Below, piece after piece: positions 4,779 to 47,400 of a stretch of DNA of 64,000 nucleotides. Each line of letters starts with the position of its first letter. The first letter of the stretch is position 1. The notes below the pieces were generated by a model. That model saw only the letters and a program-made list of their open reading frames with translations. It was not told the DNA's origin and did not search any database. This stretch comes from Heterodontus francisci (lineage: Eukaryota). Made by a program: the position numbers and the translations under genes. The stretch is from the NCBI RefSeq assembly GCF_036365525.1, contig NC_090399.1, positions 42,440,430 to 42,504,429 of the forward strand, written 5' to 3'.

Positions 4779-4781
4779 ACT

Positions 4782-9880: not shown

Positions 9881-9918
9881 AGACCGACCAGTTATCAGGA
9901 AAATTAGCATTTGCCAAT

Positions 9919-11460: not shown

Positions 11461-11703
11461 GTTACTTACAAAATATTGTTTAGTTAATGGGAATTTTTAG
11501 TTTAGATAAATCTTGCCCTGTAATTCTTGAAATTGCTCTGGGAATGTCAGATCTTGTGTTTTACCATTAACGGTCTCACTGAGGTGGAAACACTGTGTAT
11601 CCTGGGCCTCAGCCTGTCCTGGGCTGGTAGCTCAGCACTGACCCTCCCTCCTGTGCTCCTGCTCTGAGGCTGGGACCCCTCTAACAGTGAGAGACAGTCT
11701 TAC

Positions 11704-11967
11704 CATAAATCACCACCATCATCTCCGTCAGCCCGCTGTGCTCCACCCGACAGGAATACTCAGCCTGGTCTTCCGGATCAAACTCTATCCATTTCCGGAT
11801 CTGGTAGGTTCTGTCGTGATTGGGTAAAATCCCAGAGGACAGGGTCTCATCGATCATCACTCCATCTCTCCACAGAGTCACCTCGATGGCCTGAGGGTAA
11901 AACCCAGTGACGACACAGGACAGCCGGTTAGAATCACCTGGACGTGTAAAGGACACGACGGGGGCGA
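11704..11967 (-). CDS. MHC class I heavy chain, exon 4 (alpha3 Ig C1 domain)
   Basis: (V)APVVSFTRPGDSNRLSCVVTGFYPQAIEVTLWRDG...LPNHDRTYQ...YSCRVEHSGL; C1-set motifs GFYP and YxCxVxH. Acceptor tctcag| at 11968, donor |gtaag at 11703; 264 bp. Confidence 0.97.
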
Positions 11968-12079: not shown

Positions 12080-12519
12080 TTCACTCACCGATTCTTGGTC
12101 CATTCATCCGCACATCCCCTCATTCACCGACTCTCAGTCCCTCCCTCCCTTCACTCTCCGACTCTCGGTCCCACCCCCCTCACTCACTCACTGACTCTCA
12201 GTCTCTCCTCCTCAATATCTCACCGACTCTCTGTCCCCCCACCTCGCTCACCGACTCTCAGTCCGTCTGTTCCCCCCCTGCTCACCGACTCAGTCCCTCC
12301 CCCTCACTCACTCACTGACTCTCAGTCCCTCCCCCTCACTCACTCACTCAACTCTCAGTCCCTCCCCCTCACTCACTCACCGACTCTCAGCCCCTCCGTC
12401 CCCCCCTCGCTCACCGACTCTCAGTCCCTCCCCCTCACTCACTCAACTCTCAGTCCCTCCCCCTCACTCACTCACTGACTCTCAGTCCCTCCGTCCCCCC
12501 TTACTCACCGACTCTCAGT
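12080..12519 (+). repeat. Intron 3 minisatellite built from the exon 3 / intron 3 junction
   Basis: About 11-12 imperfect ~35-bp copies of CTCACCGACTCTCAGTCCCTCCCCCTCA, which is the reverse complement of CTGAGAGTCG|GTGAG. Confidence 0.88.
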
Positions 12520-12781
12520 TCTCGCTGTCCGTACAGCAGGTATTTCCTCAGCCACTCAATACACTCCTCCTCCAAGTAATTCTTCCAGCCCAGATTGCCA
12601 ACTCTGTCCTGGTTCCAATTGTGTTGGATGTTCTGCCCCCATGGGACCGGTGTCACCCACACCATGTGATCCTTGTCAAAGCTGAGGAAGTCTCGTCCGT
12701 CCCAGCCGTACTGGTTGAATCCAGTGCTGGTCCCATCGTCCCGCAGGTCACAGCCGGTCATCATCTGGATTGTACGGATCC
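12509..12781 (-). CDS. MHC class I heavy chain, exon 3 (alpha2 domain)
   Basis: (G)IRTIQMMTGCDLRDDG...YGWDGRDFLSFDKDHMVW...WKNYLEEECIEWLRKYLLYGQRELRV; C101/C164 pair, Y159 and Y171 present. Acceptor acag| at 12782, donor |gtgagt at 12508; 273 bp. Confidence 0.97.
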
Positions 12782-12794
12782 CTGTCAATAAGAC

Positions 12795-13042
12795 ACACCC
12801 AGCCAATCAGACCCAGTACCGCTGGGAGCCCCCGCCCACCACAAAAACAGCCAATCAGGCACAATGACAATAGGCGACCCCACCCACTATCCCCCAGCTA
12901 ACAGCCAATCAGATCCAGTCCCACTGGGAGACCCCGCCCACCACACAGCCAATCAGCCTCTGTCCCACTGGGAGACCCCGCCCACTATTCCCCAGCTAAC
13001 AGCCAATCAGACCTAGTCCCACTGGGAGACCCCGCCCACTGC
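12795..13042 (+). repeat. ~50-bp tandem repeat containing CCAAT and GC boxes (intron 2)
   Basis: AGCCAATCAG occurs 5 times (about 12801, 12849, 12903, 12947, 13001), alternating with CCCCGCCCAC four times and CCCCACCC once. Confidence 0.85.
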
Positions 13043-13059
13043 CTGTTATTAATCACCTG

Positions 13060-19980: not shown

Positions 19981-20131
19981 CGACTATCCCATTGGGCACT
20001 ACCCTGTGGAACTACTTTTCTCGGGTGCATTGCCTCCCTGATCCTGCTCCACTTCCAGCTTCGCCCCATTCCATCCCGGATCCGTCAACTCACAGAAAGA
20101 GGCCGAGCGAAGTAGGAGGTTGAGGACTCAC

Positions 20132-20392
20132 CCGCTGACTGGTTGGCTCGGGACATGAGGATCGGAATACGGGCCTTGAACTTCATCTCTCGCTCCTGTG
20201 CCAGGAACTTCTTCCGTGCCCAAGCCTCAGGCCCTTCACTCTCCACCATCCACTGCTCCCGAGGAATCAACTCCTTCCGATCGCTGTCGTACATAACAAA
20301 CTGGACATCGTCAACATAACCGACACCCACAAACTCCGGGAAACCAGGATTTGGAGTCATGGACGTGAAGAAATACCGGAGAGAGTGAGAGC
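20132..20392 (-). CDS. MHC class I heavy chain, exon 2 (alpha1 domain)
   Basis: Translates (G)[87 protein letters not shown], with class I motifs [14 protein letters not shown] and the N86 glycosylation site NQS. Acceptor tttcag| at 20393, donor |gtgagt at 20131; 261 bp, phase 1/1. Confidence 0.97.
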
Positions 20393-20400
20393 CTGAAAAA

Positions 20401-23400
20401 CAGAGAAAAAGACATCAGGACATGAACCCCAAACCACCAACCCCACACAGAGAGAGAAATCGGGACATGAACCTCAAACCACCAACCCCACACAGAGAGA
20501 GCATTCAGGACATGAACCCCAAAACACCAACCCCACACAGAGAGAGAAATCGGGACATGAACCTCAAACCACCAACCCCACAGAGACACATCAGGACATG
20601 AACCCCAAAACACAAACCCCTCACAGAGAAACATCAGGACATGAACCCCAAAACACCAACCCCACATATCGAGACACATCAGGACATGAACCCCAAAAAC
20701 CAACCCCTCACAGAGAAACATCAGGACATGAACCCCAAAATACCAACCCCACACAGAGAGAGACATCAGGACATGAACCCCAAAACACCAACCCCACACA
20801 GAGAAACATCAGGACATGAACCCCAAAACACCAACCCCTCACAGAGAAACATCAGGACATCAACCCCAAACAGACAGACATCAGGACATGAACCCACAAA
20901 CACCAACCCCACACAGAGACATCAGGACATGAACCCCAAAACACCAACCCCACACAGACAGACATCAGGACATGAACCCCAAAACACCAACCCCACACAG
21001 ACAGACATCAGGACATGAACCCCAAAACACCAACCCCAATCAGAGAGACGTCAGGACATGAACCCAGAAACACCAACCCCACACAGAGAGAGACATCAGG
21101 ACATGAACCCCAAAACACCAACCCCAATCAGAGAGACGTCAGGACATGAACCCAGAAACACCAACCCCACTCAGAGAGACACATCAGGACATGAACCCCA
21201 AAACACAAACCCCACACAGACAGACATCAGGACATGAACCCCAAAACATCAACCCCACACAGAGACATCAGGACATGAACCCCAAAACACAAACCCCACA
21301 CAGAGACACATCAGGACATGAACCCCAAAACACCAACCCCACACATCGAGACACATCAGGACATGAACCCCAAAACACCAACCCCACATATCGAGACACA
21401 TCAAGACATGAACCCCAAAACACCAACCCCACACATCGAGACACATCAGGACATGAATCCCAAAACACCAACCCCACACATCGAGACACATCAGGACATG
21501 AACCCCAAAACACCAACCCCTCACAGAGAAACATCAGGACATGAACCCCAAAACACCAACCCCACACATCGAGACACATCAGGACATGAACCCCAAAACA
21601 CAAACCCCACACATCGAGACACATGAGGACATGAACCCCAAAACACCAACCCCACACAGAGACACATCAGGACATGAACCCCAAAACACCAACCCCACAC
21701 AGAGACACATCAGGACATGAACCCCAAAACACCAACCCCACAAAAAGACATCAGGACATAAACCCCAAAACACCAACCCCACACAGAGAGACATCAGGAC
21801 ATAAACCCCAAAACACCAACCCCACAAAAAGACATCAGGACATAAACCCCAAAACACCAACCCCACACAGAGAGACATCAGGACATAAACCCCAAAACAC
21901 CAACCCCACACAGAGAGACATCAGGACATGAACCCAAAAACACCAGCCCCACACAGAGAGAGACATCAGAACATGAACCCCAAAGCACCAACCCCTCACA
22001 GAGAAACATCAGGACATGAACCCCAAAATACCAACCCCACACAGAGAGAGACATCAGGACATGAACCCCAAAACACCAACCCCACGCAGAGAGTCATCAG
22101 GACATGAACCCCAAAACACCAACCCCACACAGAGAGACATCAGGACATGAACCCCAAAACACCAACCCCACACAGAGAGACATCAGGACATGAACCCCAA
22201 AACACCAACCCCACACAGAGAGACATCAGGACATGAACCCCAAAACACCAAACCCACACAGAGAGACATCAGGACATGAACCCCAAAACACGAACCCCAC
22301 ACAGACAGACGTCAGGACATGAACCCAGAAACACCAACCCCACAGAGACACATCAGGACATGAACCTCAAACCACCAACCCCACACAGAGAGAGACATCA
22401 GGACATGAACCCCAAAACACCAACCCCACACAGAGAGAGACATCAGGAGATGAACACCAAAACACCAACCCCAATCAGAGAGACGTCAGGACATGAACCC
22501 AGAAACACCAACCCCACTCAGAGAGACACATCAGGACATGAACCCCAAAACACAAACCCCACACAGACAGACATCAGGACATGAACCCCAAAACATCAAC
22601 CCCACACAGAGACATCAGGACATGAACCCCAAAACACAAACCCCACACAGAGACACATCAGGACATGAACCCCAAAACACCAACCCCACACATCGAGACA
22701 CATCAGGACATGAACCCCAAAACACCAACCCCACATATCGAGACACATCAAGACATGAACCCCAAAACACCAACCCCACACATCGAGACACATCAGGACA
22801 TGAACCCCAAAACACCAACCCCACACATCGAGACACATCAGGACATGAACCCCAAAACACCAACCCCTCACAGAGAAACATCAGGACAAGAACCCCAAAA
22901 CACCAACCCCACACATCGAGACACATGAGGACATGAACCCCAAAACACCAACCCCACACAGAGAGACACATCAAGACATGAACCCCAAAACACCAACCCC
23001 ACACAACGAGACACATCAGGACATGAACCCCAAAACACAAACCCCACACAGAGACACATGAGGACATGAACCCCAAAACACCAACCCCACACAGAGAGAC
23101 ATCAGGACATGAACCCCAAAACACCAACCCCACACAGAGAGACACATCAAGACATGAACCCCAAAACACCAACCCCACACAGAGACACATCAAGACATGA
23201 ACCCCAAAACACCAACCCCACACATCGAGACACATCAAGACATGAACCCCAAAACACCAACCCCACACATCGAGACACATCAAGACATGAACCCCAAAAC
23301 ACCAACCCCACACATCGAGACACATCAAGACATGAACCCCAAAACACCAACCCCACACAGAGAGACATCAGGACATGAACCCCAAAACACCAACCCCACA

Positions 23401-26400
23401 CATCAAGACACATCAAGACATGAACCCCAAAACACCAACCCCACACAGAGAGACACATCAGGACATGATCCCCAAAACACCAACCCCACACATTGAGACA
23501 CATCAGGACATGAACCCCAAAACACCAACCCCACACAGAGAGACATCAGGACATGAACCCCAAAACACCAACCCCACACATCGAGACACATCAAGACATG
23601 AACCCCAAAACACCAACCCCACACAGAGAGACACATCAAGACATGAACCCCAAAACACCAACCCCACACATCGAGACACATGAGGACATGAACCCCAAAA
23701 CACCAACCCCACACAGAGACACATCAGGACATGAACCCCAAAACACCAACCCCACACAGAGAGACATCAGGATATGAACCCAAAACACCAACCCCACACA
23801 GAGACACATCAGGACATGAACCCCAAAACACCAACCCCACAAAAAGACATCAGGACATAAACCCCAAAACACCAACCCCACACAGAGAGACATCAGGACA
23901 TGAACCCCAAAACACCAACCCCACACAGAGAGACATCAGGACATGAACCCAAAAACACCAGCCCCACACAGAGAGAGACATCAGGACATGAACCCCAAAA
24001 CACCAACCCCTCACAGAGAAACATCAGGACATGAACCCCAAAACACCAACCCCACACAGAGAAACATCAGGACATGAACCCCAAAACACCAACCCCACAC
24101 AGAGAAACATCAGGACATGAACCCCAAAACACCAACCCCTCACAGAGAAACATCAGGACATCAACCCCAAACAGACAGACATCAGGACATGAACCCACAA
24201 ACACCAACCCCACACAGAGACATCAGGACATGAACCCCAAAACACCAACCCCACACAGACAGACATCAGGACATGAACCCCAAAACACCAACCCCACACA
24301 GACAGACATCAGGACATGAACCCCAAAACAGCAACCCCAATCAGAGAGACGTCAGGACATGAACCCAGAAACACCAACCCCACACAGAGAGAGACATCAG
24401 GACATGAACCCCAAAACACCAACCCCAATCAGAGAGACGTCAGGACATGAACCCAGAAACACCAACCCCACTCAGAGAGACACATCAGGACATGAACCCC
24501 AAAACACAAACCCCACACAGACAGACATCAGGACATGAACACCAAAACATCAACCCCACACAGAGACATCAGGACACGAACCCCAAAACACAAACCCCAC
24601 ACAGAGACACATCAGGACATGAACCCCAAAACACCAACCCCACACATCGAGACACATCAGGACATGAACCCCAAAACACCAACCCCACATATCGAGACAC
24701 ATCAAGACATGAACCCCAAAACAGCAACCCCACACATCGAGACACATCAGGACATGAACCCCAAAACACCAACCCCACACATCGAGACACATCAGGACAT
24801 GAACCCCAAAACACCAACCCCTCACAGAGAAACATCAGGACATGAACCCCAAAACACCAACCCCACACATCGAGACACATCAGGACATGAACCCCAAAAC
24901 ACAAACCCCACACATCGAGACACATGAGGACATGAACCCCAAAACACCAACCCCACACAGAGACACATCAGGACATGAACCCCAAAACACCAACCCCACA
25001 CAGAAACACATCAGGACATGAACCCCAAAACACCAACCCCACAAAAAGACATCAGGACATAAACCCCAAAACACCAACCCCACACAGAGAGACATCAGGA
25101 CATGAACCCCAAAACACCAACCCCACACAGAGAGACATCAGGACATGAACCCAAAAACACCAGCCCCACACAGAGAGAGACATCAGGACATGAACCCCAA
25201 AACACCAACCCCTCACAGAGAAACATCAGGACATGAACCCCAAAATACCAACCCCACACAGAGAGAGACATCAGGACATGAACCCCAAAACACCAACCCC
25301 ACGCAGAGAGTCATCAGGACATGAACCCCAAAACACCAACCCCACACAGAGAGACATCAGGACATGAACCCCAAAACACCAACCCCACACAGAGAGACAT
25401 CAGGACATGAACCCCAAAACACCAACCCCACACAGAGAGACATCAGGACATGAACCCCAAAACACCAAACTCACACAGAGAGACATCAGGACATGAACCC
25501 CAAAACACGAACCCCACACAGACAGACGTCAGGACATGAACCCAGAAACACCAACCCCACAGAGACACATCAGGACATGAACCTCAAACCACCAACCCCA
25601 CACAGAGAGAGACATCAGGACATGAACCCCAAAACACCAACCCCACACAGAGAGAGACATCAGGACATGAACACCAAAACACCAACCCCAATCAGAGAGA
25701 CGTCAGGACATGAACCCAGAAACACCAACCCCACTCAGAGAGACACATCAGGACATGAACCCCAAAACACAAACCCCACACAGACAGACATCAGGACATG
25801 AACCCCAAAACATCAACCCCACACAGAGACATCAGGACATGAACCCCAAAACACAAACCCCACACAGAGACACATCAGGACATGAACCCCAAAACACCAA
25901 CCCCACACATCGAGACACATCAGGACATGAACCCCAAAAGACCAACCCCACATATCGAGACACATCAAGACATGAACCCCAAAACACCAACCCCACACAT
26001 CGAGACACATCAGGACATGAACCCCAAAACACCAACCCCACACATCGAGACACATCAGGACATGAACCCCAAAACACCAACCCCTCACAGAGAAACATCA
26101 GGACAAGAACCCCAAAACACCAACCCCACACATCGAGACACATGAGGACATGAACCCCAAAACACCAACCCCACACAGAGAGACACATCAAGACATGAAC
26201 CCCAAAACACAAACCCCACACATCGAGACACATGAGGACATGAACCCCAAAACACCAACCCCACACATCGAGACACATCAGGACATGAACCCCAAAACAC
26301 AAACCCCACACAGAGACACATGAGGACATGAACCCCAAAACACCAACCCCACACAGAGAGACATCAGGACATGAACCCCAAAACACCAACCCCACACATC

Positions 26401-29400
26401 GAGACACATCAAGCCATGAACCCCAAAACACCAACCCCACACAGAGAGACATCAGGACATGAACCCCAAAACACCAACCCCACACATCGAGACACATCAA
26501 GACATGAACCCCAAAACACCAACCCCACACAGAGAGACACATCAGGACATGATCCCCAAAACACCAACCCCACACATTGAGACACATCAGGACATGAACC
26601 CCAAAACACCAACCCCACACAGAGAGACATCAGGACATGAACCCCAAAACACCAACCCCACACATCGAGACACATCAAGACATGAACCCCAAAACACCAA
26701 CCCCACACAGAGAGACACATCAAGACATGAACCCCAAAACACCAACCCCACACATCGAGACACATGAGGACATGAACCCCAAAACACCAACCCCACACAG
26801 AGACACATCAGGACATGAACCCCAAAACACCAACACCACACAGAGAGACATCAGGATATGAACCCAAAACACCAACCCCACACAGAGACACATCAGGACA
26901 TGAACCCCAAATCACCAACCCCACAAAAAGACATCAGGACATAAACCCCAAAACACCAACCGCACACAGAAAGACATCAGGACATGAACCCCAAAACAAC
27001 AACCCCACACAGAGAGACATCAGGACATGAACCCAAAAACACCAGCCCCACACAGAGAGAGACATCAGGACATGAACCCCAAAGCACCAACCCCTCACAG
27101 AGAAACATCAGGACATGAACCCCAAAATACCAACCCCACACAGAGAGAAACATCAGGACATGAACCCCAAAACACCAACCCCACACATCGAGACACATGA
27201 GGACATGAACCCCAAAACACCAACCCCACACAGAGACACATCAGGACATGAACCCCAAAACACCAACCCCACACAGAGAGACATCAGGATATGAACCCAA
27301 AACACCAACCCCACACAGAGACACATCAGGACATGAACCCCAAAACACCAACCGCACAAAAAGACATCAGGACATAAACCCCAAAACACCAACCCCACAC
27401 AGAGAGACATCAGGACATGAACCCCAAAACACCAACCCCACACAGAGAGACATCAGGACATGAACCCAAAAACACCAGCCCCACACAGAGAGAGACATCA
27501 GGACATGAACCCCAAAGCACCAACCCCTCACAGAGAAACATCAGGACATGAATCCAAAATACCAACCCCACACAAAGAGAGACATCAGGACATGAACCCC
27601 AAAACACCAACCCCACGCAGAGAGTCATCAGGACATGAACCCCAAAACACCAACCCCACACAGAGAGACATCAGGACATGAACCCCAAAACACCAACCCC
27701 ACACAGAGAGACATCAGGACATGAACCCCAAAACACCAACCCCACACAGAGAGACACATGAGGACATGAACCCCAAAACACCAACCCCACACATCGAGAC
27801 ACATCAGGACATGAACCCCAAAACACCAACCCCACACAGAGACACATGAGGACATGAACCCCAAAACACCAACCCCACACATCGAGAGACATCAGGACAT
27901 GAACCCCAAAACACCAACCCCACACAGAGAGACACATCAAGACATGAACCCCAAAACACCAACCCCACACATTGAGACACATCAGGACATGAACCCCAAA
28001 ACACCAACCCCACACAGAGAGACATCAGGACATGAACCCCAAAACACCAACCCCACACATCGAGACACATCAAGACATGAACCCCAAAACACCAACCCCA
28101 CACAGAGAGACACATCAAGACATGAACCCCAAAACACCAACCCCACACATCGAGACACATGAGGACATGAACCCCAAAACACCAACCCCACACAGAGACA
28201 CATCAGGACATGAACCCCAAAACACCAACCCCACACAGAGAGACATCAGGATATGAACCCAAAACAACAACCCCACACAGAGACACATCAGGACATGAAC
28301 CCCAAAACACCAACCCCACAAAAAGACATCAGGACATAAACCCCAAAACACCAACCCCACACAGAGAGACATCAGGACATGAACCCCAAAACACCAACCC
28401 CACACAGAGAGACATCAGGACATGAACCCAAAAACACCAGCCCCACACAGAGAGAGACATCAGGACATGAACCCCAAAGCACCAACCCCTCACAGAGAAA
28501 CATCAGGACATGAACCCCAAAATACCAACCCCACACAGAGAGAGACATCAGGACATGAACCCCAAAACACCAACCCCACACATCGAGACACATGAGGACA
28601 TGAACGCCAAAACACCAACCCCACACAGAGACACATCAGGACATGAACCCCAAAACACCAACCCCACAAAAAGACATCAGGACATAAACCCCAAAACACC
28701 AACCCCACACAGAGAGACATCAGGACATGAACCCCAAAACACCAACCCCACACAGAGAGACATCAGGACATGAACCCAAAAACACCAGCCCCACACAGAG
28801 AGAGACATCAGAACATGAACCCCAAAGCACCAACCCCTCACAGAGAAACATCAGGACATGAATCCAAAATACCAACCCCACACAGAGAGAGACATCAGGA
28901 CATGAACCCCAAAACACCAACCCCACGCAGAGAGTCATCAGGACATGAACCCCAAAACACCAACCCCACACAGAGAGACATCAGGACATGAACCCCAAAA
29001 CACCAACCCCACACAGAGAGACATCAGGACATGAACCCCAAAACACCAACCCCACACAGAGAGACATCAGGACATGAACCCCAAAACACCAACCCCACAC
29101 AGAGACACATCAGGACATGAACCCCAAAACACGAACACCACACAGACAGACATCAGGACATGAACCCCAAAACACCAACCCCAATCAGAGAGACGTCAGG
29201 ACATGAACCCAGAAACACCAACCCCACAGAGACACATCAGGACATGAACCTCAAACCACCAACCCCACACAGAGAGAGACATCAGGACATGAACCCCAAA
29301 ACACCAACCCCACACAGAGAGAGACATCAGGACATGAACACCAAAACACCAACCCCAATCAGAGAGACGTCAGGACATGAACCCAGAAACACCAACCCCA

Positions 29401-32400
29401 CTCAGAGAGACACATCAGGACATGAACCCCAAAACACAAACCCCACACAGACAGACATCAGGACATGAACCCCAAAACATCAACCCCACACAGAGACATC
29501 AGGACATGAACCCCAAAACACAAACCCCACACAGAGACACATCAGGACATGAACCCCAAAACACCAACCCCACACATCGAGACACATCAGGACATGAACC
29601 CCAAAACACCAACCCCACATATCGAGACACATCAAGACATGAACCCCAAAACACCAACCCCACACATCGAGACACATCAGGACATGAACCCCAAAACACC
29701 AACCCCACACATCGAGACACATCAGGACATGAACCCCAAAACACCAACCCCTCACAGAGAAACATCAGGACATGAACCCCAAAACACCAACCCCACACAT
29801 CGAGACACATCAGGACATGAACCCCAAAACACCAACCCCACACATCGAGACACATGAGGACATGAACCCCAAAACACCAACCCCACACAGAGAGACACAT
29901 CAAGACATGAACCCCAAAACACAAACCCCACACATCGAGACACATGAGGACATGAACCCCAAAACACCAACCCCACACATCGAGACACATCAGGACATGA
30001 ACCCCAAAACACAAACCCCACACAGAGACACATGAGGACATGAACCCCAAAACACCAACCCCACACAGAGAGACATCAGTACATGAACCCCAAAACACCA
30101 ACCCCACACAGAGAGACACATCAAGACATGAACCCCAAAACACCAACCCCACACAGAGACACATCAAGACATGAACCCCAAAACACCAACCCCACACATC
30201 GAGACACATCAAGACATGAACCCCAAAACACCAACCCCACACATCGAGACACATCAAGACATGAACCCCAAAACACCAACCCCACACATCGAGACACATC
30301 AAGACATGAACCCCAAAACACCAACCCCACACAGAGAGACATCAGGACATGAACCCCAAAACACCAACCCCACACAGAGAGACACATCAGGACATGATCC
30401 CCAAAACACCAACCCCACACATTGAGACACATCAGGACATGAACCCCAAAACACCAACCCCATACAGAGAGACATCAGGACATGAACCCCAAAACACCAA
30501 CCCCACACATCGAGACACATCAAGACATGAACCCCAAAACACCAACCCCACACAGAGAGACACATCAAGACATGAACCCCAAAACACCAACCCCAACACA
30601 GAGAGACACATCAGGACATGAACCCCAAAACACCAACCCCACACAGAGAGACACATCCGGACATGAACCCCAAAACACCAACCCCACACAGAGAGACATC
30701 AGGACATGAACCCCAAAACACCAACCCCACACAGAGACACATCAGGACATGAACCGCAAAACACCAACCCCACACATTGAGACACATCAGGACATGAACC
30801 CCAAAACACCAACCCCACATAGAGAAACATCAGGACATGAACCCCAAAACACCAACCCCACACATCGAGACACATCAAGACATGAACCCCAAAACACCAA
30901 CCCCACACAGAGAGACACATCAGGACATGATCCCCAAAACACCAACCCCACACATTGAGACACATCAGGACATGAACCCCAAAACACCAACCCCACACAG
31001 AGAGACATCAGGACATGAACCCCAAAACACCAACCCCACACATCGAGACACATCAAGACATGAACCCCAAAACACCAACCCCACACAGAGAGACACATCA
31101 AGACATGAACCCCAAAACACCAACCCCACACATCGAGACACATGAGGACATGAACCCCAAAACACCAACCCCACACAGAGACACATCAGGACATAAACCC
31201 CAAAACACCAACCCCACACAGAGAGACATCAGGATATGAACCCAAAACACCAACCCCACACAGAGACACATCAGGACATGAACCCCAAAACACCAACCCC
31301 ACAAAAAGACATCAGGACATAAACCCCAAAACACCAACCCCACACAGAGAGACATCAGGACATGAACCCCAAAACACCAACCCCACACAGAGAGACATCA
31401 GGACATGAACCCAAAAACACCAGCCCCACACAGAGAGAGACATCAGGACATGAACCCCAAAGCACCAACCCCTCACAGAGAAACATCAGGACATGAACCC
31501 CAAAATACCAACCCCACACAGAGAGAAACATCAGGACATGAACCCCAAAACACCAACCCCACACATCGAGACACATGAGGACATGAACCCCAAAACACCA
31601 ACCCCACACAGACACACATCAGGACATGAACCCCAAAACACCAACCCCACACAGAGAGACATCAGGATATGAACCCAAAACACCAACCCCACACAGAGAC
31701 ACATCAGGACATGAACCCCAAAACACCAACCCCACTAAAAGACATCAGGACATAAACCCCAAAACACCAACCCCACACAGAGAGACATCAGGACATGAAC
31801 CCCAAAACACCAACCCCACACAGAGAGACATCAGGACATGAACCCAAAAACACCAGCCCCACCCAGAGAGAGACATCAGGACATGAACCCCAAAGCACCA
31901 ACCCCTCACAGAGAAACATCAGGACATGAATCCAAAATACCAACCCCACACAGAGAGAGACATCAGGACATGAACCCCAAAACACCAACCCCACGCAGAG
32001 AGTCATCAGGACATGAACCCCAAAACACCAAACCCACACAGAGAGACATCAGGACATGAACCCCAAAACACCAACCCCACACAGAGAGACATCAGGACAT
32101 GAACCCCAAAACACCAACCCCACACAGAGAGACACATGAGGACATGAACCCCAAAACACCAACCCCACACATCGAGACACATCAGGACATGAACCCCAAA
32201 ACACAAACCCCACACAGAGACACATGAGGACATGAACCCCAAAACACCAACCCCACACATCGAGAGACATCAGGACATGAACCCCAAAACACCAACCCCA
32301 CACAGAGAGACACATCAAGACATGAACCCCAAAACACCAACCCCACACATCGAGACACATCAAGACATGAACCCCAAAACACCAACCCCACACAGAGAGA

Positions 32401-35400
32401 CATCAGGACATGAACCCCAAAACACCAACCCCACACATCGAGACACATCAAGACATGAACCCCAAAACACCAACCCCACACAGAGAGACACATCAGGACA
32501 TGATCCCCAAAACACCAACCCCACACATTGAGACACATCAGGACATGAACCCCAAAACACCAACCCCACACAGAGAGACATCAGGACATGAACCCCAAAA
32601 CACCAACCCCACACATCGAGACACATCAAGACATGAACCCCAAAACACCAACCCCACACAGAGAGACACATCAAGACATGAACCCCAAAACACCAACCCC
32701 ACACATCGAGACACATGAGGACATGAACCCCAAAACACCAACCCCACACAGAGACACATCAGGACATGAACCCCAAAACACCAACCCCACACAGAGAGAC
32801 ATCAGGATATGAACCCAAAACAACAACCCCACACAGAGACACATCAGGACATGAACCCCAAAACACCAACCCCACAAAAAGACATCAGGACATAAACCCC
32901 AAAACACCAACCCCACACAGAGAGACATCAGGACATGAACCCCAAAACACCAACCCCACACAGAGAGACATCAGGACATGAACCCAAAAACACCAGCCCC
33001 ACACAGAGAGAGACATCAGGACATGAACCCCAAAGCACCAACCCCTCACAGAGAAACATCAGGACATGAACCCCAAAATACCAACCCCACACAGAGAGAG
33101 ACATCAGGACATGAACCCCAAAACACCAACCCCACACATCGAGACACATGAGGACATGAACGCCAAAACACCAACCCCACACAGAGACACATCAGGACAT
33201 GAACCCCAAAACACCAACCCCACACAGACAGACATCAGGATATGAACCCAAAACACCAACCCCACACAGAGACACATCAGGACATGAACCCCAAAACACC
33301 AACCCCACAAAAAGACATCAGGACATAAACCCCAAAACACCAACCTCACACAGAGAGACATCAGGACATGAACCCCAAAACACCAACCCCACACAGAGAG
33401 ACATCAGGACATGAACCCAAAAACACCAGCCCCACACAGAGAGAGACATCAGGACATGAACCCCAAAGCACCAACCCCTCACAGAGAAACATCAGGACAT
33501 GAATCCAAAATACCAACCCCACACAGAGAGAGACATCAGGACATGAACCCCAAAACACCAACCCCACGCAGAGAGTCATCAGGACATGAACCCCAAAACA
33601 CCAACCCCACACAGGGAGACATCAGGACATGAACCCCAAAACACCAACCCCACACAGAGAGACATCAGGACATGAACCCCAAAACACCAACCCCACACAG
33701 AGAGACATCAGGACATGAACCCCAAAACACCAACCCCACACAGAGAGACATCAGGACATGAACCCCAAAACACGAACCCCACACAGACAGACATCAGGAC
33801 ATGAACCCCAAAACACCAACCCCAATCAGAGAGACGTCAGGACATGAACCCAGAAACACCAACCCCACAGAGACACATCAGGACATGAACCTCAAACCAC
33901 CAACCCCACACAGAGAGAGACATCAGGACATGAACCCCAAAACACCAACCCCACAGAGAGAGAGACATCAGGACATGAACCCCAAAACACCAACCCCAAT
34001 CAGAGAGACGTCAGGGCATGAACCCAGAAACACCAACCCCACTCAGAGAGACACATCAGGACATGAACCCCAAAACACAAACCCCACACAGACAGACATC
34101 AGGACATGAACCCCAAAACATCAACCCCACACAGAGACATCAGGACATGAACCCCAAAACACAAACCCAACACAGAGACACATCAGGACATGAACCCCAA
34201 AACACCAACCCCACATATCGAGACACATCAAGACATGAACCCCAAAACACCAACCCCACACATCGAGACACATCAGGACATGAACCCCAAAACACCAACC
34301 CCACATATCGAGACACATCAAGACATGAACCCCAAAACACCAACCCCACACATCGAGACACATCAGGACATGAACCCCAAAACACCAACCCCACACATCA
34401 AGACACATCAGGACATGAACCCCAAAACACCAACCCCTCACAGAGAAACATCAGGACATGAACCCCAAAACACCAACCCCACACATCGAGACACATCAGG
34501 ACATGAACCCCAAAACACCAACCCCACACATCGAGACACATGAGGACATGAACCCCAAAACACCAACCCCACACAGAGAGACACATCAAGACATGAACCC
34601 CAAAACACAAACCCCACACATCGAGACACATGAGGACATGAACCCCAAAACACCAACCCCACACATCGAGACACATCAGGACATGAACCCCAAAACACAA
34701 ACCCCACACAGAGACACATGAGGACATGAACCCCAAAACACCAACCCCACACAGAGAGACATCAGGACATGAACCCCAAAACACCAACCCCACACAGAGA
34801 GACACATCAAGACATGAACCCCAAAACACCAACCCCACACAGAGACACATCAAGACATGAACCCCAAAACACCAACCCCACACATCGAGACACATCAAGA
34901 CATGAACCCCAAAACACCAACCCCACACATCGAGACACATCAAGACATGAACCCCAAAACACCAACCCCACACATCGAGACACATCAAGACATGAACCCC
35001 AAAACACCAACCCCACACAGAGAGACATCAGGACATGAACCCCAAAACACCAACCCCACACATCGAGACACATCAAGACATGAACCCCAAAACACCAACC
35101 CCACACAGAGAGACACATCAGGACATGATCCCCAAAACACCAACCCCACACATTGAGACACATCAGGACATGAACCCCAAAACACCAACCCCACACAGAG
35201 AGACATCAGGACATGAACCCCAAAACACCAACCCCACACATCGAGACACATCAAGACATGAACCCCAAAACACCAACCCCACACAGAGAGACACATCAAG
35301 ACATGAACCCCAAAACACCAACCCCACACAGAGAGACACATCAGGACATGAACCCCAAAACACCAACCCCACACAGAGAGACACATCCGGACATGAACCC

Positions 35401-38400
35401 CAAAACACCAACCCCACACAGAGAGACATCAGGACATGAACCCCAAAACACCAACCCCACACAGAGACACATCAGGACATGAACCGCAAAACACCAACCC
35501 CACACATTGAGACACATCAGGACATGAACCCCAAAACACCAACCCCACATAGAGAAACATCAGGACATGAACCCCAAAACACCAACCCCACACATCGAGA
35601 CACATCAGGACATGATCCCCAAAACACCAACCCCACAGAGAGAAAGACATCAGGACATGAACCCCAAAACGCCAACCCCACACAGAGACACACATCAGGA
35701 TATGAACCCCAAAACACCAACACAAGAGAGACATCAGGACATGAACCCCAAAACACCAACCCCACACAGAGAAACATCAGGACATGAACCCCAAAACACC
35801 AACCCCACAAAAAGACATCAGGACATAAACCCCAAAACACCAACCCCACACAGAGAGACATCAGGACATGAACCCCAAAACACCAACCCCACACAGAGAG
35901 ACATCAGGACATGAACCCCAAAACACCAACCCCACACAGAGAGACATCAGGACATGAACCCCAAAACACCAACCCCACACAGAGAGACATCAGGACATGA
36001 ACCCCAAAACACCAACCCCACACATCGAGACACATCAAGACATGAACCCCAAAACACCAACCCCACACATCGAGACACATCAAGACATGAACCCCAAAAC
36101 ACCAACCCCACACATCGAGACACATCAAGACATGAACCCCAAAACACCAACCCCACACATCGAGACACATCAAGACATGAACCCCAAAACACCAACACCA
36201 CACATCGAGACACATCAAGACATGAACCCCAAAACACCAACCCCACACATCGAGACACATCAAGACATGAACCCCAAAACACCAACACCACACATCGAGA
36301 CACATCAAGACATGAACCCCAAAACGCCAACCCCACACATCGAGACACATCAAGACATGAACCCCAAAACACTAACCCCACACAGAGAGAGACATCAAGA
36401 CATGAACCCCAAAACACTAACCCCACACAGAGAGAGACATCAGGACATGAACCCCAAAACACCAACCCCACACAGAGAAACATCAGGACATGAACCCCAA
36501 AACACCAAGCCCACACAGAGAGACATCAGGACATGAACCCCAAAACACCAAGCCCACACAGAGAGACATCAGGACATGAACACCAAAACACCAGCCCCAC
36601 ACAGAGAGAGACATCAGGACATGAACCCCAAAACACCAACCCCACAGAGAGAGAGACATCAGGACATGAACCCCAAAACACCAACCCCACATAGAGAAAC
36701 ATCAGGACATGAACCCCAAAACACCAACCCCACACAGAGACACATCAGGACATGAACCCCAAAACACCAACCCCACAGAGAGAAAGACATCAGGACATGA
36801 ACCCCAAAACGCCAACCCCACACAGAGACACACATCAGGATAAGAACCCCAAAACACCAACACAAGAGAGACATCAGGACATGAACCCCAAAACACCAAC
36901 CCCACACAGAGAGACATCAGGACATGAACCCCAAAACACCAACACAAGAGAGACATCAGGACATGAACCCCAAAACACCAACCCCACACAGAGAGACATC
37001 AGGATATGAACCCAAAACACCAACACCACACAGAGACACATCAGGACATGAACCCCAAAACACCAACCCCACAAAAAGACATCAGGACATAAACCCCAAA
37101 ACACCAACCCCACACAGAGAGACATCAGGACATGAACCCAAAAACACCAGCCCCACACAGAGAGAGACATCAGGACATGAACCCCAAAGCACCAACCCGT
37201 CACAGAGAAACATCAGGACATGAACCCCAAAATACCAACCCCACACAGAGAGAGACATCAGGAAATGAACCCCAAAACACCAACCCCACGCAGAGAGTCA
37301 TCAGGACATGAACCCCAAAACACCAACCCCACACAGAGAGACATCAGGACATGAACCCCAAAACACCAACCCCACACAGAGAGACATCAGGACATGAACC
37401 CAAAAACACCAGCCCCACACAGAGAGAGACATCAGGACATGAACCCCAAAGCACCAACCCTTCACAGAGAAACATCAGGACATGAACCCCAAAATACCAA
37501 CCCCACACAGAGAGAGACATCAGGAAATGAACCCCAAAACACCAAACCCACGCAGAGAGTCATCAGGACATGAACCCCAAAACACCAACCCCACACAGAG
37601 AGACATCAGGACATGAACCCCAAAACACCAACCCCACACAGAGAGACATCAGGACATGAACCCCAAAACACCAACCCCACACAGAGAGACATCAGGACAT
37701 GAACCCCAAAACACCAACCCCACACAGAGAGACATCAGGACATGAACCCCAAAACACCAACCCCACTCAGAGAGACACATCAGGACATGAACCCCAAAAC
37801 ACAAACCCCACACAGACAGACATCAGGACATGAACCCCAAAACATCAACCCCACACAGAGACATCAGGACATGAACCCCAAAACACAAACCCCACACAGA
37901 GACACATCAGGACATGAACCCCAAAACACCAACCCCACACATCGAGACACATCAGGACATGAACCCCAAAACACCAACCCCACATATCGAGACACATCAA
38001 GACATGAACCCCAAAACACCAACCCCACACATGGAGACACATCAGGACATGAACCCCAAAACACCAACCCCACATATCGAGACACATCAAGACATGAACC
38101 CCAAAACACCAACCCCACACATCGAGACACATCAGGACATGAACCCCAAAACACCAACCCCACACATCGAGACACATCAGGACATGAACCCCAAAACACC
38201 AACCCCTCACAGAGAAACATCAGGACATGAACCCCAAAACACCAACCCCACACATCGAGACACATCAGGACATGAACCCCAAAACACCAACCCCACACAT
38301 CGAGACACATGAGGACATGAACCCCAAAACACCAACCCCACACAGAGAGACACATCAAGACATGAACCCCAAAACACAAACCCCACACATCGAGACACAT

Positions 38401-41400
38401 GAGGACATGAACCCCAAAACACCAACCCCACACATCGAGACACATCAGGACATGAACCCCAAAACACAAACCCCACACAGAGACACATGAGGACATGAAC
38501 CCCAAAACACCAACCCCACACAGAGAGACATCAGGACATGAACCCCAAAACACCAACCCCACACAGAGAGACACATCAAGACATGAACCCCAAAACACCA
38601 ACCCCACACAGAGACACATCAAGACATGAACCCCAAAACACCAACCCCACACATCGAGACACATCAGGACATGATCCCCAAAACACCAACCCCACACATT
38701 GAGACACATCAGGACATGAACCCCAAAACACCAACCCCACACAGAGAGACATCAGGACATGAACCCCAAAACACCAACCCCACACATCGAGACACATCAA
38801 GACATGAACCCCAAAACACCAACCCCACACAGAGAGACACATCAGGACATGAACCCCAAAACACCAACCCCACACAGAGAGACACATCCGGACATGAACC
38901 CCAAAACACCAACCCCACACAGAGAGACATCAGGACATGAACCCCAAAACACCAACCCCACACAGAGACACATCAGGACATGAACCGCAAAACACCAACC
39001 CCACACATTGAGACACATCAGGACATGAACCCCAAAACACCAACCCCACATAGAGAAACATCAGGACATGAACCCCAAAACACCAACCCCACACATCGAG
39101 ACACATCAGGACATGATCCCCAAAACACCAACCCCACAGAGAGAAAGACATCAGGACATGAACCCCAAAACGCCAACCCCACACAGAGACACACATCAGG
39201 ATATGAACCCCAAAACACCAACACAAGAGAGACATCAGGACATGAACCCCAAAACACCAACCCCACACAGAGAGACATCAGGACATGAACCCCAAAACAC
39301 CAACACAAGAGAGACATCAGGACATGAACCCCAAAACACCAACCCCACACAGAGAAACATCAGGACATGAACCCCAAAACACCAACCCCACAAAAAGACA
39401 TCAGGACATAAACCCCAAAACACCAACCCCACACAGAGAGACATCAGGACATGAACCCCAAAACACCAACCCCACACAGAGAGACATCAGGACATGAACC
39501 CCAAAACACCAACCCCACACAGAGAGACATCAGGACATGAACCCCAAAACACCAACCCCACACAGAGAGACATCAGGACATGAACCCCAAAACACCAACC
39601 CCACACATCGAGACACATCAAGACATGAACCCCAAAACACCAACCCCACACATCGAGACACATCAAGACATGAACCCCAAAACACCAACCCCACACATCG
39701 AGACACATCAAGACATGAACCCCAAAACACCAACCCCACACATCGAGACACATCAAGACATGAACCCCAAAACACCAACACCACACATCGAGACACATCA
39801 AGACATGAACCCCAAAACACCAACCCCACACATCGAGACACATCAAGACATGAACCCCAAAACACCAACACCACACATCGAGACACATCAAGACATGAAC
39901 CCCAAAACGCCAACCCCACACATCGAGACACATCAAGACATGAACCCCAAAACACTAACCCCACACAGAGAGAGACATCAAGACATGAACCCCAAAACAC
40001 TAACCCCACACAGAGAAACATCAGGACATGAACCCCAAAACACCAAGCCCACACAGAGAGACATCAGGACATGAACCCCAAAACACCAAGCCCACACAGA
40101 GAGACATCAGGACATGAACACCAAAACACCAGCCCCACACAGAGAGAGACATCAGGACATGAACCCCAAAACACCAACCCCACAGAGAGAGAGACATCAG
40201 GACATGAACCCCAAAACACCAACCCCACATAGAGAAACATCAGGACATGAACCCCAAAACACCAACCCCACACAGAGACACATCAGGACATGAACCCCAA
40301 AACACCAACCCCACAGAGAGAAAGACATCAGGACATGAACCCCAAAACGCCAACCCCACACAGAGACACACATCAGGATAAGAACCCCAAAACACCAACA
40401 CAAGAGAGACATCAGGACATGAACCCCAAAACACCAACCCCACACAGAGAGACATCAGGACATGAACCCCAAAACACCAACACAAGAGAGACATCAGGAC
40501 ATGAACCCCAAAACACCAACCCCACACAGAGAGACATCAGGATATGAACCCAAAACACCAACACCACACAGAGACACATCAGGACATGAACCCCAAAACA
40601 CCAACCCCACAAAAAGACATCAGGACATAAACCCCAAAACACCAACCCCACACAGAGAGACATCAGGACATGAACCCAAAAACACCAGCCCCACACAGAG
40701 AGAGACATCAGGACATGAACCCCAAAGCACCAACCCGTCACAGAGAAACATCAGGACATGAACCCCAAAATACCAACCCCACACAGAGAGAGACATCAGG
40801 AAATGAACCCCAAAACACCAACCCCACGCAGAGAGTCATCAGGACATGAACCCCAAAACACCAACCCCACACAGAGAGACATCAGGACATGAACCCCAAA
40901 ACACCAACCCCACACAGAGAGACATCAGGACATGAACCCAAAAACACCAGCCCCACACAGAGAGAGACATCAGGACATGAACCCCAAAGCACCAACCCTT
41001 CACAGAGAAACATCAGGACATGAACCCCAAAATACCAACCCCACACAGAGAGAGACATCAGGAAATGAACCCCAAAACACCAACCCCACGCAGAGAGTCA
41101 TCAGGACATGAACCCCAAAACACCAACCCCACACAGAGAGACATCAGGACATGAACCCCAAAACACCAACCCCACACAGAGAGACATCAGGACATGAACC
41201 CCAAAACACCAACCCCACACAGAGAGACATCAGGACATGAACCCCAAAACACCAACCCCACACAGAGAGACATCAGGACATGAACCCCAAAACACCAACC
41301 CCACACAGAGAGACATCAGGACATGAACCCCAAAACACCAACCCCACGCAGAGAGTCATCAGGACATGAACCCCAAAACACCAACCCCACGCAGAGAGTC

Positions 41401-44400
41401 ATCAGGACATGAACCCCAAAGCACCAACCCCTCACAGAGAAACATCAGGACATGGACCCCAAAATACCAACCCCACACAGAGAGAGACATCAGGACATGA
41501 ACCCCAAAACACCAACACCACGCAGAGAGACATCAGGACATGAACCCCAAAACACCAACCCCACACAGAGAGACATCAGGACATGAACCCCAAAACACCA
41601 ACCCCACACAAAGAGACATCAGGACATGAACTCCAAAACACCAACCCCACACAGAGAGACATCAGGACATGAACCCCAAAACACCAACCCCACACAGAGA
41701 GACATCAGGACATGAACCCCAAAACACAAACCCCACACAGAGAGACATCAGGACATGAACTCCAAAACACCAACCCCACACAGAGAGACATCAGGACATG
41801 AACCCCAAAACACCAACCCCACACATCGAGACACATCAAGACATGAACCCCAAAACACCAACCCCACACAGAGAGAGACATCAGGACATGAACCCCAAAA
41901 CACCAACCCCACACAGAGAAACATCAGGACATGAAACCCAAAACACCAACCCCACTTAGAGCGAGACATCAGGACATGAACCCCAAAACACCAACCCCAC
42001 ACAGAGAGACACATCAGGACATGAACCCCAAAACACCAACCCCACTTAGAGCGAGACATCAGGACATGAACCCCAAAACACCAACCCCACACAGAGAGAC
42101 ACATCAGGACATGAACCCCAAAACACCAACCCCACAGAGAGAAAGACATCAGGACATGAACCCCAAAACACCAACCCCACACAGAGAAACATCAGGACAT
42201 GAACCCCAAAACACCAACCCCACACAGAGAAACAACAGGACATGAAACCCAAAACACCAACCCCACTTAGAGCGAGACATCAGGACATGAACCCCAAAAC
42301 ACCAACCCCACACAGAGAGAAACATCAGGACATGAACCCCAAAACACCAACCCCACACAGAGAGACACATCAGGACATGAACCCCAAAACACCAACCCCA
42401 CAGAGAGAGACATCAGGACATGAACCCCAAAACACTAACCCCACACAGAGAGAAACATCAAGACATGAACCCCAAAACACCAACCCCACATATCGAGACA
42501 CATCAGGACATGAACCCCAAAACACCAACCCCACACAGAGACACATCAGGACATGAACCCCAAAACACCAACACAAGAGAGACATCAGGACATGAACCCC
42601 AAAACACCAACCCCACTTAGAGCGAGACATCAGGACATGAACCCCAAAACACCAACCCCACTGAGAGCGAGACATCAGGACATGAACCCCAAAACACTAA
42701 CCCCACACAGAGAGAAACATCAGGACATGAACCCCAAAACACCAACCCCACACAGAGAGACACATCAGGACATGAACCCCAAAACACCAACCCCACAGAG
42801 AGAGACATCAGGACATGAACCCCAAAACACTAACCCCACACAGAGAGAAACATCAAGACATGAACCCCAAAACACCAACCCCACATATCGAGACACATCA
42901 GGACATGAACCCCAAAACACCAACCCCACACAGAGACACATCAGGACATGAACCCCAAAACACCAACCCCACACAGAGAGACATCAGGATATGAACCCAA
43001 AACACCAACCCCACTTAGAGCGAGACATCAGGACATGAACCCCAAAACACCAACCCCACTTAGAGCGAGACATCAGGACATGAACCCCAAAACACCAACC
43101 CCACACAGAGAGACACATCAGGACATGAAACCCAAAACACCAACACAAGAGAGACATCAGGACATGAACCCCAAAACACCAACCCCACACAGAGAGAGAC
43201 GTCAGGACATGAACCCCAAAACACCAACCCCACACAGAGACACATCAGGACATGAACCCCAAAACACCAACCCCACAAAAAGACATCAGGACATAAACCC
43301 CAAAACACCAACCCCACACAGAGAGACATCAGGACATGAACCCCAAAACACCAACCCCACATAGGGAGACATCAGAACATGAACCCAAAAACACCAGCCC
43401 CACACAGAGAGAGACATCAAGACATGAACCCCAAAGCACCAACCCCTCACAGAGAAACATCAGGACATGAACCCCAAAATACTAACCTCACACAGAGAGA
43501 GACATCAGGACATGAACCCCAAAACACCAACCCCACGCAGAGAGTCATCAGGACATGAACCCCAAAACACCAACCCCACACAGAGAGACATCAGGACATG
43601 AACCCCAAAACACCAACCCCACACAGAGAGACATCAGGACATGAACCCCAAAACACCAACCCCACACAGAGAGAGATCAGGACATGAACCCCAAAACACC
43701 AACCCCACACAGAGAGAGATCAGGACATGAACCCCAAAACACCAACCCCACGCAGAGAGTCATCAGGACATGAACCCCAAAACACCAACCCCACGCAGAG
43801 AGTCATCAGGACATGAACCCCAAAGCACCAACCCCTCACAGAGAAACATCAGGACATGAACCCCAAAATACCAACCCCACACAGAGAGAGACATCAGGAC
43901 ATGAACCCCAAAACACCAACCCCACGCAGAGAGACATCAGGACATGAACCCCAAAACACCAACCCCACACAGAGAGACATCAGGACATGAACCCCAAAAC
44001 ACAAACCCCACACAGAGAGACATCAGGACATGAACTCCAAAACACCAACCCCACACAGAGAGACATCAGGACATGAACCCCAAAACACCAACCCCACACA
44101 TCGAGACACATCAAGACATGAACCCCAAAACACCAACCCCACACAGAGAGAGACATCAGGACATGAACCCCAAAACACCAACCCCACACAGAGAGACACA
44201 TCAGGACATGAACCCCAAAACACCAACCCCACTTAGAGCGAGACATCAGGACATGAACCCCAAAACACCAACCCCACACAGAGAGACACATCAGGACATG
44301 AACCCCAAAACACCAACCCCACAGAGAGAAAGACATCAGGACATGAACCCCAAAACACCAACCCCACACAGAGAAACATCAGGACATGAACCCCAAAACA

Positions 44401-47400
44401 CCAACCCCACACAGAGAAACATCAGGACATGAACCCCAAAACACCAACCCCACACAGAGAAACATCAGGACATGAAACCCAAAACACCAACCCCACTTAG
44501 AGCGAGACATCAGGACATGAACCCCAAAACACCAACCCCACACAGAGAGAAACATCAGGACATGAAGCCCAAAACACCAACCCCACACAGAGAGACACAT
44601 CAGGACATGAACCCCAAAACACCAACCCCACAGAGAGAGACATCAGGACATGAACCCCAAAACACTAACCCCACACAGAGAGAAACATCAAGACATGAAC
44701 CCCAAAACACCAACCCCACATATCGAGACACATCAGGACATGAACCCCAAAACACCAACCCCACACAGAGACACATCAGGACATGAACCCCAAAACACCA
44801 ACACAAGAGAGACATCAGGACATGAACCCCAAAACACCAACCCCACTTAGAGCGAGACATCAGGACATGAACCCCAAAACACCAACCCCACTTAGAGCGA
44901 GACATCAGGACATGAACCCCAAAACACTAACCCCACACAGAGAGAAACATCAGGACATGAACCCCAAAACAACAACCCCACACAGAGAGACACATCAGGA
45001 CATGAACCCCAAAACACCAACCCCACAGAGAGAGACATCAGGACATGAACCCCAAAACACTAACCCCACACAGAGAGAAACATCAAGACATGAACCCCAA
45101 AACACCAACCCCACACACGGAGACACATCAGGACATGAACTCCAAAACACTAACCCCACACAGAGAGAAACATCAGGACATGAACCCTAAAACACTAACC
45201 CCACACACGGAGACACATCAGGACATGAACTCCAAAACACCAACACAAGAGAGACATCAGGACATGAACCCCAAAACACCAACCCCACACAGATGAGACA
45301 TCAGGACATGAACCCCAAAACACCAACCCCACACAGAGAGACATCAGGACATGAACCCCAAAACACCAACCCCACCCAGAGAGACATCAGGACATGAACC
45401 CCAAAACACCAACACAAGAGAGACATCAGGATATGAACCCCAACACACCAACATCACACAGAGAGACATCAGGATATGAACCCCAAAACACCAACACAAG
45501 AGAGACATCAGGACATGAACCCCAAAACACCAACACAAGAGAGACATCAGGACATGAACCCCAAAACACCAACACAAGAGACACATCAGGACATGAACCC
45601 CAAAACACCAACCCCACACAGAGAGGCATCAGGACATGAACCCCAAAACACCAACACAAGAGAGACATCAGGACATGAACCCCAAAACACCAACCCCACA
45701 CAGAGAGGCATCAGGACATGAACCCCAAAACACCAACACAAGAGAGACATCAGGACATGAACCCCAAAACACCAACACAAGAGAGACATCAGGACATGAA
45801 CCCCAAAACACCAACCCCACGCAGAGAGGCATCAGGACATGAACCCCAAAACACCAACCCCACGCAGAGAGGCATCAGGACATGAACCCCAAAACACCAA
45901 CCCCACACAGAGACACATCAGGACATGAACCCCAAAACACCAACCCCACACAGAGACACATCAGGACATGAACCCCAAAACACCAACCCCACACAGAGAC
46001 ACATCAGGACATGAACCCCAAAACACCAACCCCACACAGAGTCACATCAGGACATGAACCCCAAAACACCAACCCCACACAGAGACACGTCAGGACATGA
46101 ACCCCAAAACACCAACACTGCACAGAGACACATCAGGACATGAACCCCAAAACACCAACACCGCACAGAGACACATCAGGACATGAACCCCAAAACACCA
46201 ACACAAGAGAAACATCAGGACATGAACCCCAAAACACCAACCCCACACAGAGCGGCATCAGGACATGAACCCCAAAACACCAACACAAGAGAGACATCAG
46301 GACATGAACCCGAAAACACCAACACCGCACAGAGACACATCAGGACATGAACCCCAAAACACCAACACAAGAGAAACATCAGGACATGAACCCAAAACAC
46401 CAACCCCACACATCGAGACACATCAGGACATGAACCCCAAAACACCAACACAAGAGAGACATCAGGACATGAACCCCAAAACACCAACCGCACACAGAGA
46501 GACATCAGGACATGAACCCCAAAACACCAACACAAGAGAGACATCAGGACATGAACCCCAAAACACCAACACAACAGAGACATCAGGACATGAACCCCAA
46601 AACACCAACACAAGAGAGACATCAGGACAAGAACCCCAAAACACCAACACAAGAGAGACATCAGGACATGAACCCCAAAACACCAACCCACACAGAGAGG
46701 CATCAGGACATGAACCCCAAAACACCAACACAAGAGAGACATCAGGACATGAACCCCAAAACACCAACCCCACACAGAGAGGCATCAGGACATGAACCCC
46801 AAAACACCAACACAAGAGAGACATCAGGACATGAACCCCAAAACACCAACACCACGCAAAGAGGCATCAGGACATGAACCCCAAAACACCAACACAAGAG
46901 AGACATCAGGACATGAACCCCAAAACACCAACCCCACACAGAGAGGCATCAGGACATGAACCCCAAAACACCAACACAAGAGACACATCAGGACATGAAC
47001 CCCAAAACACCAACCCCACACAGAGACACATCAGGACATGAACCCCAAAACACCAACACCACACAGAGAGGCATCAGGACATGAACCCCAAAACACCAAC
47101 ACAAGAGAGACATCAGGACATGAACCCCAAAACACCAACACCACACAGAGAGGCATCAGGACATGAACCCCAAAACACCAACACAAGAGAGACATCAGGA
47201 CATGAACCCCAAAACACCAACCCCACACAGAGAGGCATCAGGACATGAACCCCAAAACACCAACACAAGAGACACATCAGGACATAAACACCAAAACACC
47301 AACCCCACACAGAGACACATCAGGACATGAACCCCAACACACCAACCCCACAGAGACACATCAGGATATGAACACCAAAACACCAACCCCACACAGAGAG

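Follow-up and report, generated by a model that had tools for sequence, protein, structure and literature searches.

The giant 43-bp minisatellite in the first intron of a shark MHC class I gene is most likely tolerated passenger DNA and not a means of splicing control. We consider it probable that the array derives from the acceptor of that intron and expands neutrally, with just the exon-adjacent unit predicted to be functional.

The window (the whole stretch of 64,000 nucleotides that was analyzed, on contig C29) hosts on its minus strand an alpha1 exon (20132..20392; Pfam PF00129, E 3e-20; best solved structure 6lup_A, E 2e-27), an alpha2 exon (12509..12781) and an alpha3 exon of the Ig C1 type (11704..11967), the latter two recognized through both domain matches and contigs. 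The leader exon, which lies upstream of the array, was read by eye as MIGLIVLVLLCGGVSA. Both the protein and the gene neighborhood point to a likeness with cartilaginous-fish class I genes. The gene does not have the marks of classical class Ia: it encodes PEAW where 6lup_A has PEYW, whose tyrosine we take to be one of the conserved peptide-anchoring residues, and it lies approximately 23 Mb from a TAP2-like gene and a proteasome-beta exon. In this distance from the TAP2-like gene it resembles the clusters of elasmobranch nonclassical class Ib genes, which according to the main text of PMC10751288 are multicopy and all located on the MHC chromosome, some of them far from the class Ia/TAP/PSMB core. 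In that main text the word 'intron' does not occur and 'repeat' occurs once, in an unrelated context. We found no description of the shark 43-bp repeat in the literature searched, most subscription papers and supplements lying outside that search.

The array occupies 20410..64000 of the minus strand and runs on to about 71,860 in extended coordinates. It measures 51.4 kb (about 1,198 units) inside an intron 1 of 60,170 bp, and contains multi-kb higher-order duplications. TRF returns a single array within the window (20410-63994, period 43, 1,015 copies, 89% matches), in agreement with the 43 kb that an earlier note on this DNA had assigned to it, but the true length is greater because the array extends beyond the window. 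Instability driven by G-quadruplexes is not supported, as the array has no canonical G4 motif and a mean G4Hunter score of 0.71 (17% of the scored windows at or above 1.2).

As the earlier note had proposed, the array runs straight into the alpha1 acceptor. The junction on the minus strand reads ...GTTCATGTCCTGATGTCTTTTTCTCTGTTTTTCAG|GC, and can also be given as the array running into TTTTTCTCTGTTTTTCAG|GC. The acceptor AG of intron 1 (20393..20394, read 20394-20393 on the minus strand) is supported by the sequence and by the spliced contigs of a relative, and the U-rich pyrimidine tract that precedes it (20396..20410) has pyrimidines at 14 of 15 positions, unlike the internal units. The edge of the array at 20410 is 17 nt from the exon, and TRF and sequence together place a branch-like motif inside its end unit, which overlaps the authentic splice signal in the manner of a splice-site-spanning VNTR. 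This motif, CTGAT (20414..20418), is the predicted branch point, with its A at 20415 or position -23, where the earlier note had also put it. The same terminal unit holds an alternative branch-like yTnAy, TTCAT (20422..20426), with its A at 20423 (-31). PMC10078293 gives a typical branch distance of 19-37 nt, which the A at -23 fits. The features of a 3' splice site are thus present in the sequence: a yTnAy with its A within 19-37 nt, a pyrimidine tract and a YAG. We count it as a major-spliceosome 3' splice site, its use in mRNA included, with the join to the leader deduced from the contigs of a second organism.

The evidence for splicing comes from contigs of two samples, in runs that we took as RNA by inference, none being so recorded. 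In organism A, contigs from two runs of one sample join alpha1 to alpha2 (12780 to 20131) and alpha2 to alpha3, in 0-mismatch pieces and at a depth of about 3,900 in X1. These contigs fit equally well the gene of the window and its twin, locus L002, which is identical in alpha1 and alpha2 and has an array of 58 kb. The contigs of organism B (X7 record 25 and X2 record 15) match the window to exactly 20395 and then continue with 14 other letters. Since the end of the leader exon and the intron have just the final CAG in common, a departure at 20395 fits a join to the leader, and the 14 extra letters are, as indirect evidence, what leader-alpha1 splicing predicts.

To trace the origin of the unit, we relied on the paralogs. 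A protein search of the 6.0-Gb genome identified 33 alpha1 exons, and we examined the acceptors of 30 loci and of 3 more. The same 43-bp unit ends intron 1 at 24 of the 33 class I alpha1 loci, in 1 to approximately 1,360 copies. It forms arrays at L001-4, L006, L010-15, L017-20 and L022, and is found as one or two copies at L005, L007, L008, L016, L024, L025, L026 and a locus at 46.34 Mb. The alpha1 exons of the latter group are 37-76% identical to the query, within a range of 37-85% across all unit-bearing paralogs. YTGAT occurs at -19 to -34 in 22 of the 23 acceptors listed and in a 24th, that is in 23 of 24, so the motif at -23 is broadly kept. At L005, L007 and L008 its A is the sole A between -46 and -4, and the A of TTCAT is missing; L026 has lost YTGAT and retains an upstream TTCAA as the remaining candidate. 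Because the branch-like A is conserved across paralogs and stands at a fitting distance, the branch point of intron 1 probably lies in the terminal unit, as far as sequence can tell, and the unit is likely old at this site.

These comparisons suggest that the unit is an amplified piece of the 3' end of the class I intron 1. The earlier note had described the array as an amplified 3' splice signal lacking its AG and had asked for a single ancestral unit among the paralogs. Several acceptors with one or two units were indeed found and the branch-like A is kept, so that the origin from an acceptor is likely; what does not hold is the functional meaning drawn from the lack of AG. The single-unit paralogs may also be truncated arrays, and in L005, L007 and L008 three to four further units lie upstream at a distance of about 3.8 kb. 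Arrays became giant on more than one occasion, since L020 (51% identity) bears its own 54-kb array that shares few 15-mers with that of the window (overlap 0.07).

It is very improbable that the minisatellite instead had an independent origin and came to serve as a branch point after insertion next to an old class I acceptor, its resemblance to a splice signal being secondary. Such a history would be in keeping with the ability of the unit to move, which is evident from a copy at TAP2, with the unrelated acceptors and unrelated arrays of L009/L021, L023 and L027, and with the frequency of yTnAy by chance (2,009 words in the window part of the array). Against it, the most divergent paralogs carry single units, and no copy lies outside class I genes, TAP2 and one contig made wholly of repeat. 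Of the 24 matches to a pattern of the unit joined to an acceptor, 16 were at class I exons; the other 8 were scattered and were attributed to chance (control, 5).

An exact 21-mer of the repeat has 4,527 matches in the 6-Gb genome (1,412 + 3,115; control, 0), and all were placed. Of these, 3,235 precede class I alpha1 exons, 992 belong to the TAP2 array and 300 are on C2187. All lie on four contigs, the MHC-bearing C29 and the unplaced C815, C1655 and C2187, and not on many chromosomes as expected of a dispersed or centromeric satellite; this placement covers copies with the exact 21-mer, and diverged copies could sit elsewhere. A 321-bp piece used as a DNA query against the genome revealed no arrays beyond the known ones among the 37 of 168 candidates scored, and a metagenome scan for the 21-mer gave 0 matches. 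The earlier note had thought that a wide spread outside class I acceptors would count against it. The spread of the satellite is limited, yet the largest copy is the one before the TAP2-like gene, where the terminal AG is read through. Contig C2187 is an unplaced 40.7-kb piece, wholly repeat and with more substitutions than the placed arrays; it may be a lower-quality or allelic piece.

The array at TAP2 spans 98.7 kb and 2,261 units of the same 43-bp unit (C29:65,681,503-65,780,185) upstream of the TAP2-like gene; the TAP2-side locus including it lies at C29:65,681,393-65,780,185 on the minus strand. The name of the gene is based on its second exon (38 amino acids, E 5e-5 to TAP2), on spliced contigs and on a proteasome-beta exon 220 kb away; the first exon has no match in Pfam or solved structures. 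The sequence in which the array terminates is CTCTCTTTCAG, some 100 nt upstream of the ATG. The end of the array overlaps one motif resembling the IRF-element consensus, and a second such motif follows 40 nt on. Spliced contigs of organism B (X2 record 9 and X7 record 19) continue 90 and 52 nt past the terminal AG into the repeat, and a contig of organism A (X3) stops 6 nt short of it. No splice joint at this AG was found in the four runs from two samples, whose contigs give no start site. As far as the contigs show, the TAP2 array is therefore non-intronic, and the repeat is present at TAP2 in both organisms. The 15-mer overlap of the TAP2 array is highest with the nearby L020 (0.67) and L022 (0.56) and lowest with the window array (0.06). 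Upstream of the TAP2 array we looked for a leader exon of class I and for shared unique flanking sequence, and found neither. The copy is likely an ectopic transfer. In organism A, contigs also contain a second, diverged next-exon sequence after exon 1 of the TAP2-like gene, which suggests a second TAP2 allele lineage or a paralog.

The consensus unit has no AG on the sense strand, as the earlier note had stated, and the note had suggested that this could explain why the expansion is tolerated. That AG absence is selected, and is what permits expansion, we regard as exceedingly improbable, and the tests run have largely refuted it. In its favor, AG is observed at 0.16 of the expectation from base composition, and the array of L020 is very poor in AG (0.04 per unit). 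However, AC (0.21) and GC (0.09) are depleted to a similar extent, the unit contains just two A and lacks six dinucleotides, and 38% of 100,000 shuffled units are free of AG (P = 0.38), so that at the level of the unit the depletion is no greater than base composition predicts. Across 1,160 parsed units of the window array, we then set the substitutions that create AG against those of the same type at other sites. Per site and per 1,000 units, G>A changes number 10.8 versus 12.2 and T>A changes 4.2 versus 3.9, with no deficit of the AG-making class (one-sided P = 0.73-0.76; 14 versus 25 site classes). None of the seven arrays tested shows a significant deficit. L020 leans most toward one (AG-making G>A 2.9 versus 18.4 per 1,000), and its pooled P of 0.26-0.49 is not significant. 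With few site classes and non-independent units, this test would miss weak selection.

Nor is the array free of AG. The AG-poor zone of the earlier note holds for the consensus unit, but 174 AG dinucleotides persist in the whole array (141 in its window part), 77 of them YAG, and the closest lies just 80 nt upstream of the acceptor. With the previous AG at this distance and no deficit of AG-making changes, the intron does not resemble those with a long AG-exclusion zone and a distant branch point. Nine complete acceptor-like sites, defined as a branch motif followed by at least 10 of 13 pyrimidines and TAG, also persist in this intron, and 12 in that of its twin. Eight of the nine, each with CTGAT, a pyrimidine tract and TAG, lie in the window part on the minus strand (31736..62868, with the A of the AG at 31736, 51326, 53118, 54578, 58089, 58915, 62042 and 62868), and the ninth lies beyond it. 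New AGs accumulate freely in the window array. The TAP2 array is poorer in AG than the intronic array of the window (0.079 versus 0.145 per unit) despite lying, on the evidence of the contigs, outside an intron. The lowest value of all is that of L020 (0.037). Finally, AG-bearing acceptor arrays of 2-40 kb occur in L009, L021 and L027, which also weighs against this idea.

These three genes have open alpha1 frames and, judged from their sequence, tolerate arrays of complete acceptors, AG included. Directly before the real exon, L021 carries a 137-bp unit repeated 136 times and L009 the same unit 14.5 times; the complete acceptor recurs exactly 103 times in L021 and 12 times in L009. This 137-bp unit comprises a complete acceptor (CTAAC, tract, CAG) and a piece resembling alpha1 coding sequence. 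Upstream of L027, a 26-32-bp array contains 1,157 TTTACAG|GG words within 40 kb; a 32-bp repeat similar to that of L027 is found in the middle of intron 1 of L010-L019, and inverted near L022. Every unit of the L009/L021 arrays repeats a complete splice site, which the units of the window array do not, and the former are the better test case for acceptor choice.

The roughly 1,000 decoy branch points of the earlier note exist as motifs, with CTGAT repeated 880 times along the window part of the array and about 1,070 CTGAY words in intron 1, but they are weak decoys: internal units average 8.9 pyrimidines in the 15 positions of the tract slot and none of 1,053 reaches 13, compared to 14 of 15 at the real site. 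U2AF needs a long U-rich tract, and splice sites are recognized through exon definition. From what is known of splicing, the spliceosome would ignore the internal units, whose tract is cut by a run of G and which no defined exon follows.

An acceptor-derived, neutrally expanding array could have formed as follows. Slippage at the (CT)n tract would have produced the first duplication and left TTTCAG behind; the arrays of L001, L016 and L020 do begin in a CT-rich flank. Since such slippage would leave the TTTCAG outside the repeated unit, the poverty in AG would be inherited and not selected. Unequal exchange would then have grown some arrays to more than 50 kb, separately at TAP2, in L020 and in the lineage of the window. 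The copy before TAP2 would have come from a neighboring class I gene by ectopic transfer.

Arrays abutting exons are common in this gene family. They occur on the acceptor side of 20 of the 30 class I alpha1 exons, a count in which the paralogs are not independent and four unit types are represented, and on neither side of any of 22 proteasome exon matches, after 6 of 28 loci that looked intronless or lay on short contigs were dropped beforehand by judgment. A genome-wide habit of exon-abutting minisatellites is rejected by this comparison. In the gene of the window, a separate 44-98-bp minisatellite (12800..13040, minus strand), which contains AG and five CTGAT, abuts the alpha2 acceptor, and a 32-bp minisatellite with ten GTGAGY words (12116..12519, minus strand) overlaps the alpha2 donor. 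In most class I paralogs the leader donor starts a 63-65-bp repeat. The window gene has 30 TCA|GTGAGTAA words, and its leader exon and donor-derived 63-bp pseudo-donor array lie at 75,524-80,611 of the extended window (L032:1524-6611), split by a LINE-like insertion.

These arrangements have precedents in human genes. In the 37-bp VNTR of F7 IVS7, as described in PMC1557585, the end unit is the real splice signal, silent pseudo-sites follow, and only the exon-adjacent copy is used. The shark array shares the end unit that serves as splice signal, and the leader and alpha2 donors of the same gene are of the same design as F7. The F7 repeat is on the donor side with 5-9 copies of complete sites, whereas the shark array is on the acceptor side with about 1,200 copies; its units, unlike those of F7, lack the AG and half of the tract, and the silence of its copies is predicted. 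The 25-bp VNTR in intron 18 of ABCA7 ranges from 298 to 10,678 bp with a splice signal in its unit, and effects on exon skipping and expression were measured (PMC5954066). Both repeats have a splice signal in their unit, and length varies widely among the ABCA7 alleles and, in the shark, among paralogs. ABCA7 is again on the donor side; the shark array is five times the longest ABCA7 allele, and it has paralogous copies. CFTR (TG)n and NARS2, treated as splicing-associated tandem repeats (spl-TRs) in PMC10078293, are like the shark array repeats at a 3' splice site. The NARS2 repeat of that account lies between branch point and AG and alters their spacing, whereas the shark array grows upstream and leaves the spacing fixed. 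The array is thus an acceptor-side, giant and probably neutral counterpart of splice-site-spanning VNTRs, with an incomplete unit that spread over a gene family and was probably exported to TAP2.

By analogy with such systems, array length might modify splicing or expression of the class I genes, and of TAP2, through binding of splicing factors or delayed transcription. We consider this unlikely. The number of CTGAY words in one intron, the range of lengths among paralogs (one unit to 58 kb) and between the twins, and the presence of the same repeat at class I genes and TAP2 all fit this idea, as does the rise of exon skipping with VNTR length in ABCA7 (PMC5954066). However, AG is not purged, internal tracts are weak, and the largest copy is non-intronic as far as the contigs show. 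The persistence of the unit across divergent lineages, and at TAP2 in a second organism, could be explained by function as well as by neutral expansion. A broader proposal is quite unlikely: that in sharks an acceptor repeat born in class I has become a shared, MHC-restricted element, 50-100 kb long in first introns and exported to an interferon-responsive TAP2 promoter, whose number of units adjusts the expression of class I and of the transporter or drives recombination between the two. If length did affect expression, the arrays would constitute a quantitative MHC polymorphism of a new kind.

One gene family with 1 to approximately 1,360 branch-point-like copies provides a natural experiment on 3' splice-site choice, to which the sister genes add cases where the real site is preceded by more than 100 complete acceptors. 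The arrays can be used to track exchange between TAP2 and the class I genes, and at 50-100 kb they would break short-read assemblies of the shark MHC.

Several rearrangements were observed around these genes. L022 has an inversion inside intron 1, its leader exon being on the other strand at a distance of about 1.5 kb from alpha1, and the locus is probably disrupted. The region C29:42.33-42.91 Mb (L007, L001, L005, L002) is a direct duplication of approximately 390 kb, 99.3% alike and with two class I genes in each copy, and may represent either a segmental duplication of recent date or two haplotypes that the assembly placed in tandem. Within this one genome the flanks of the twins are 99.3% alike, and their arrays, at 51.4 and 58.2 kb, are 6.8 kb apart in length. 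A retrovirus-like insertion with similar ends and frames that look interrupted occupies 4300-11500 of the window, in the intron after alpha3, and the twin locus aligns across it at 99.4%.
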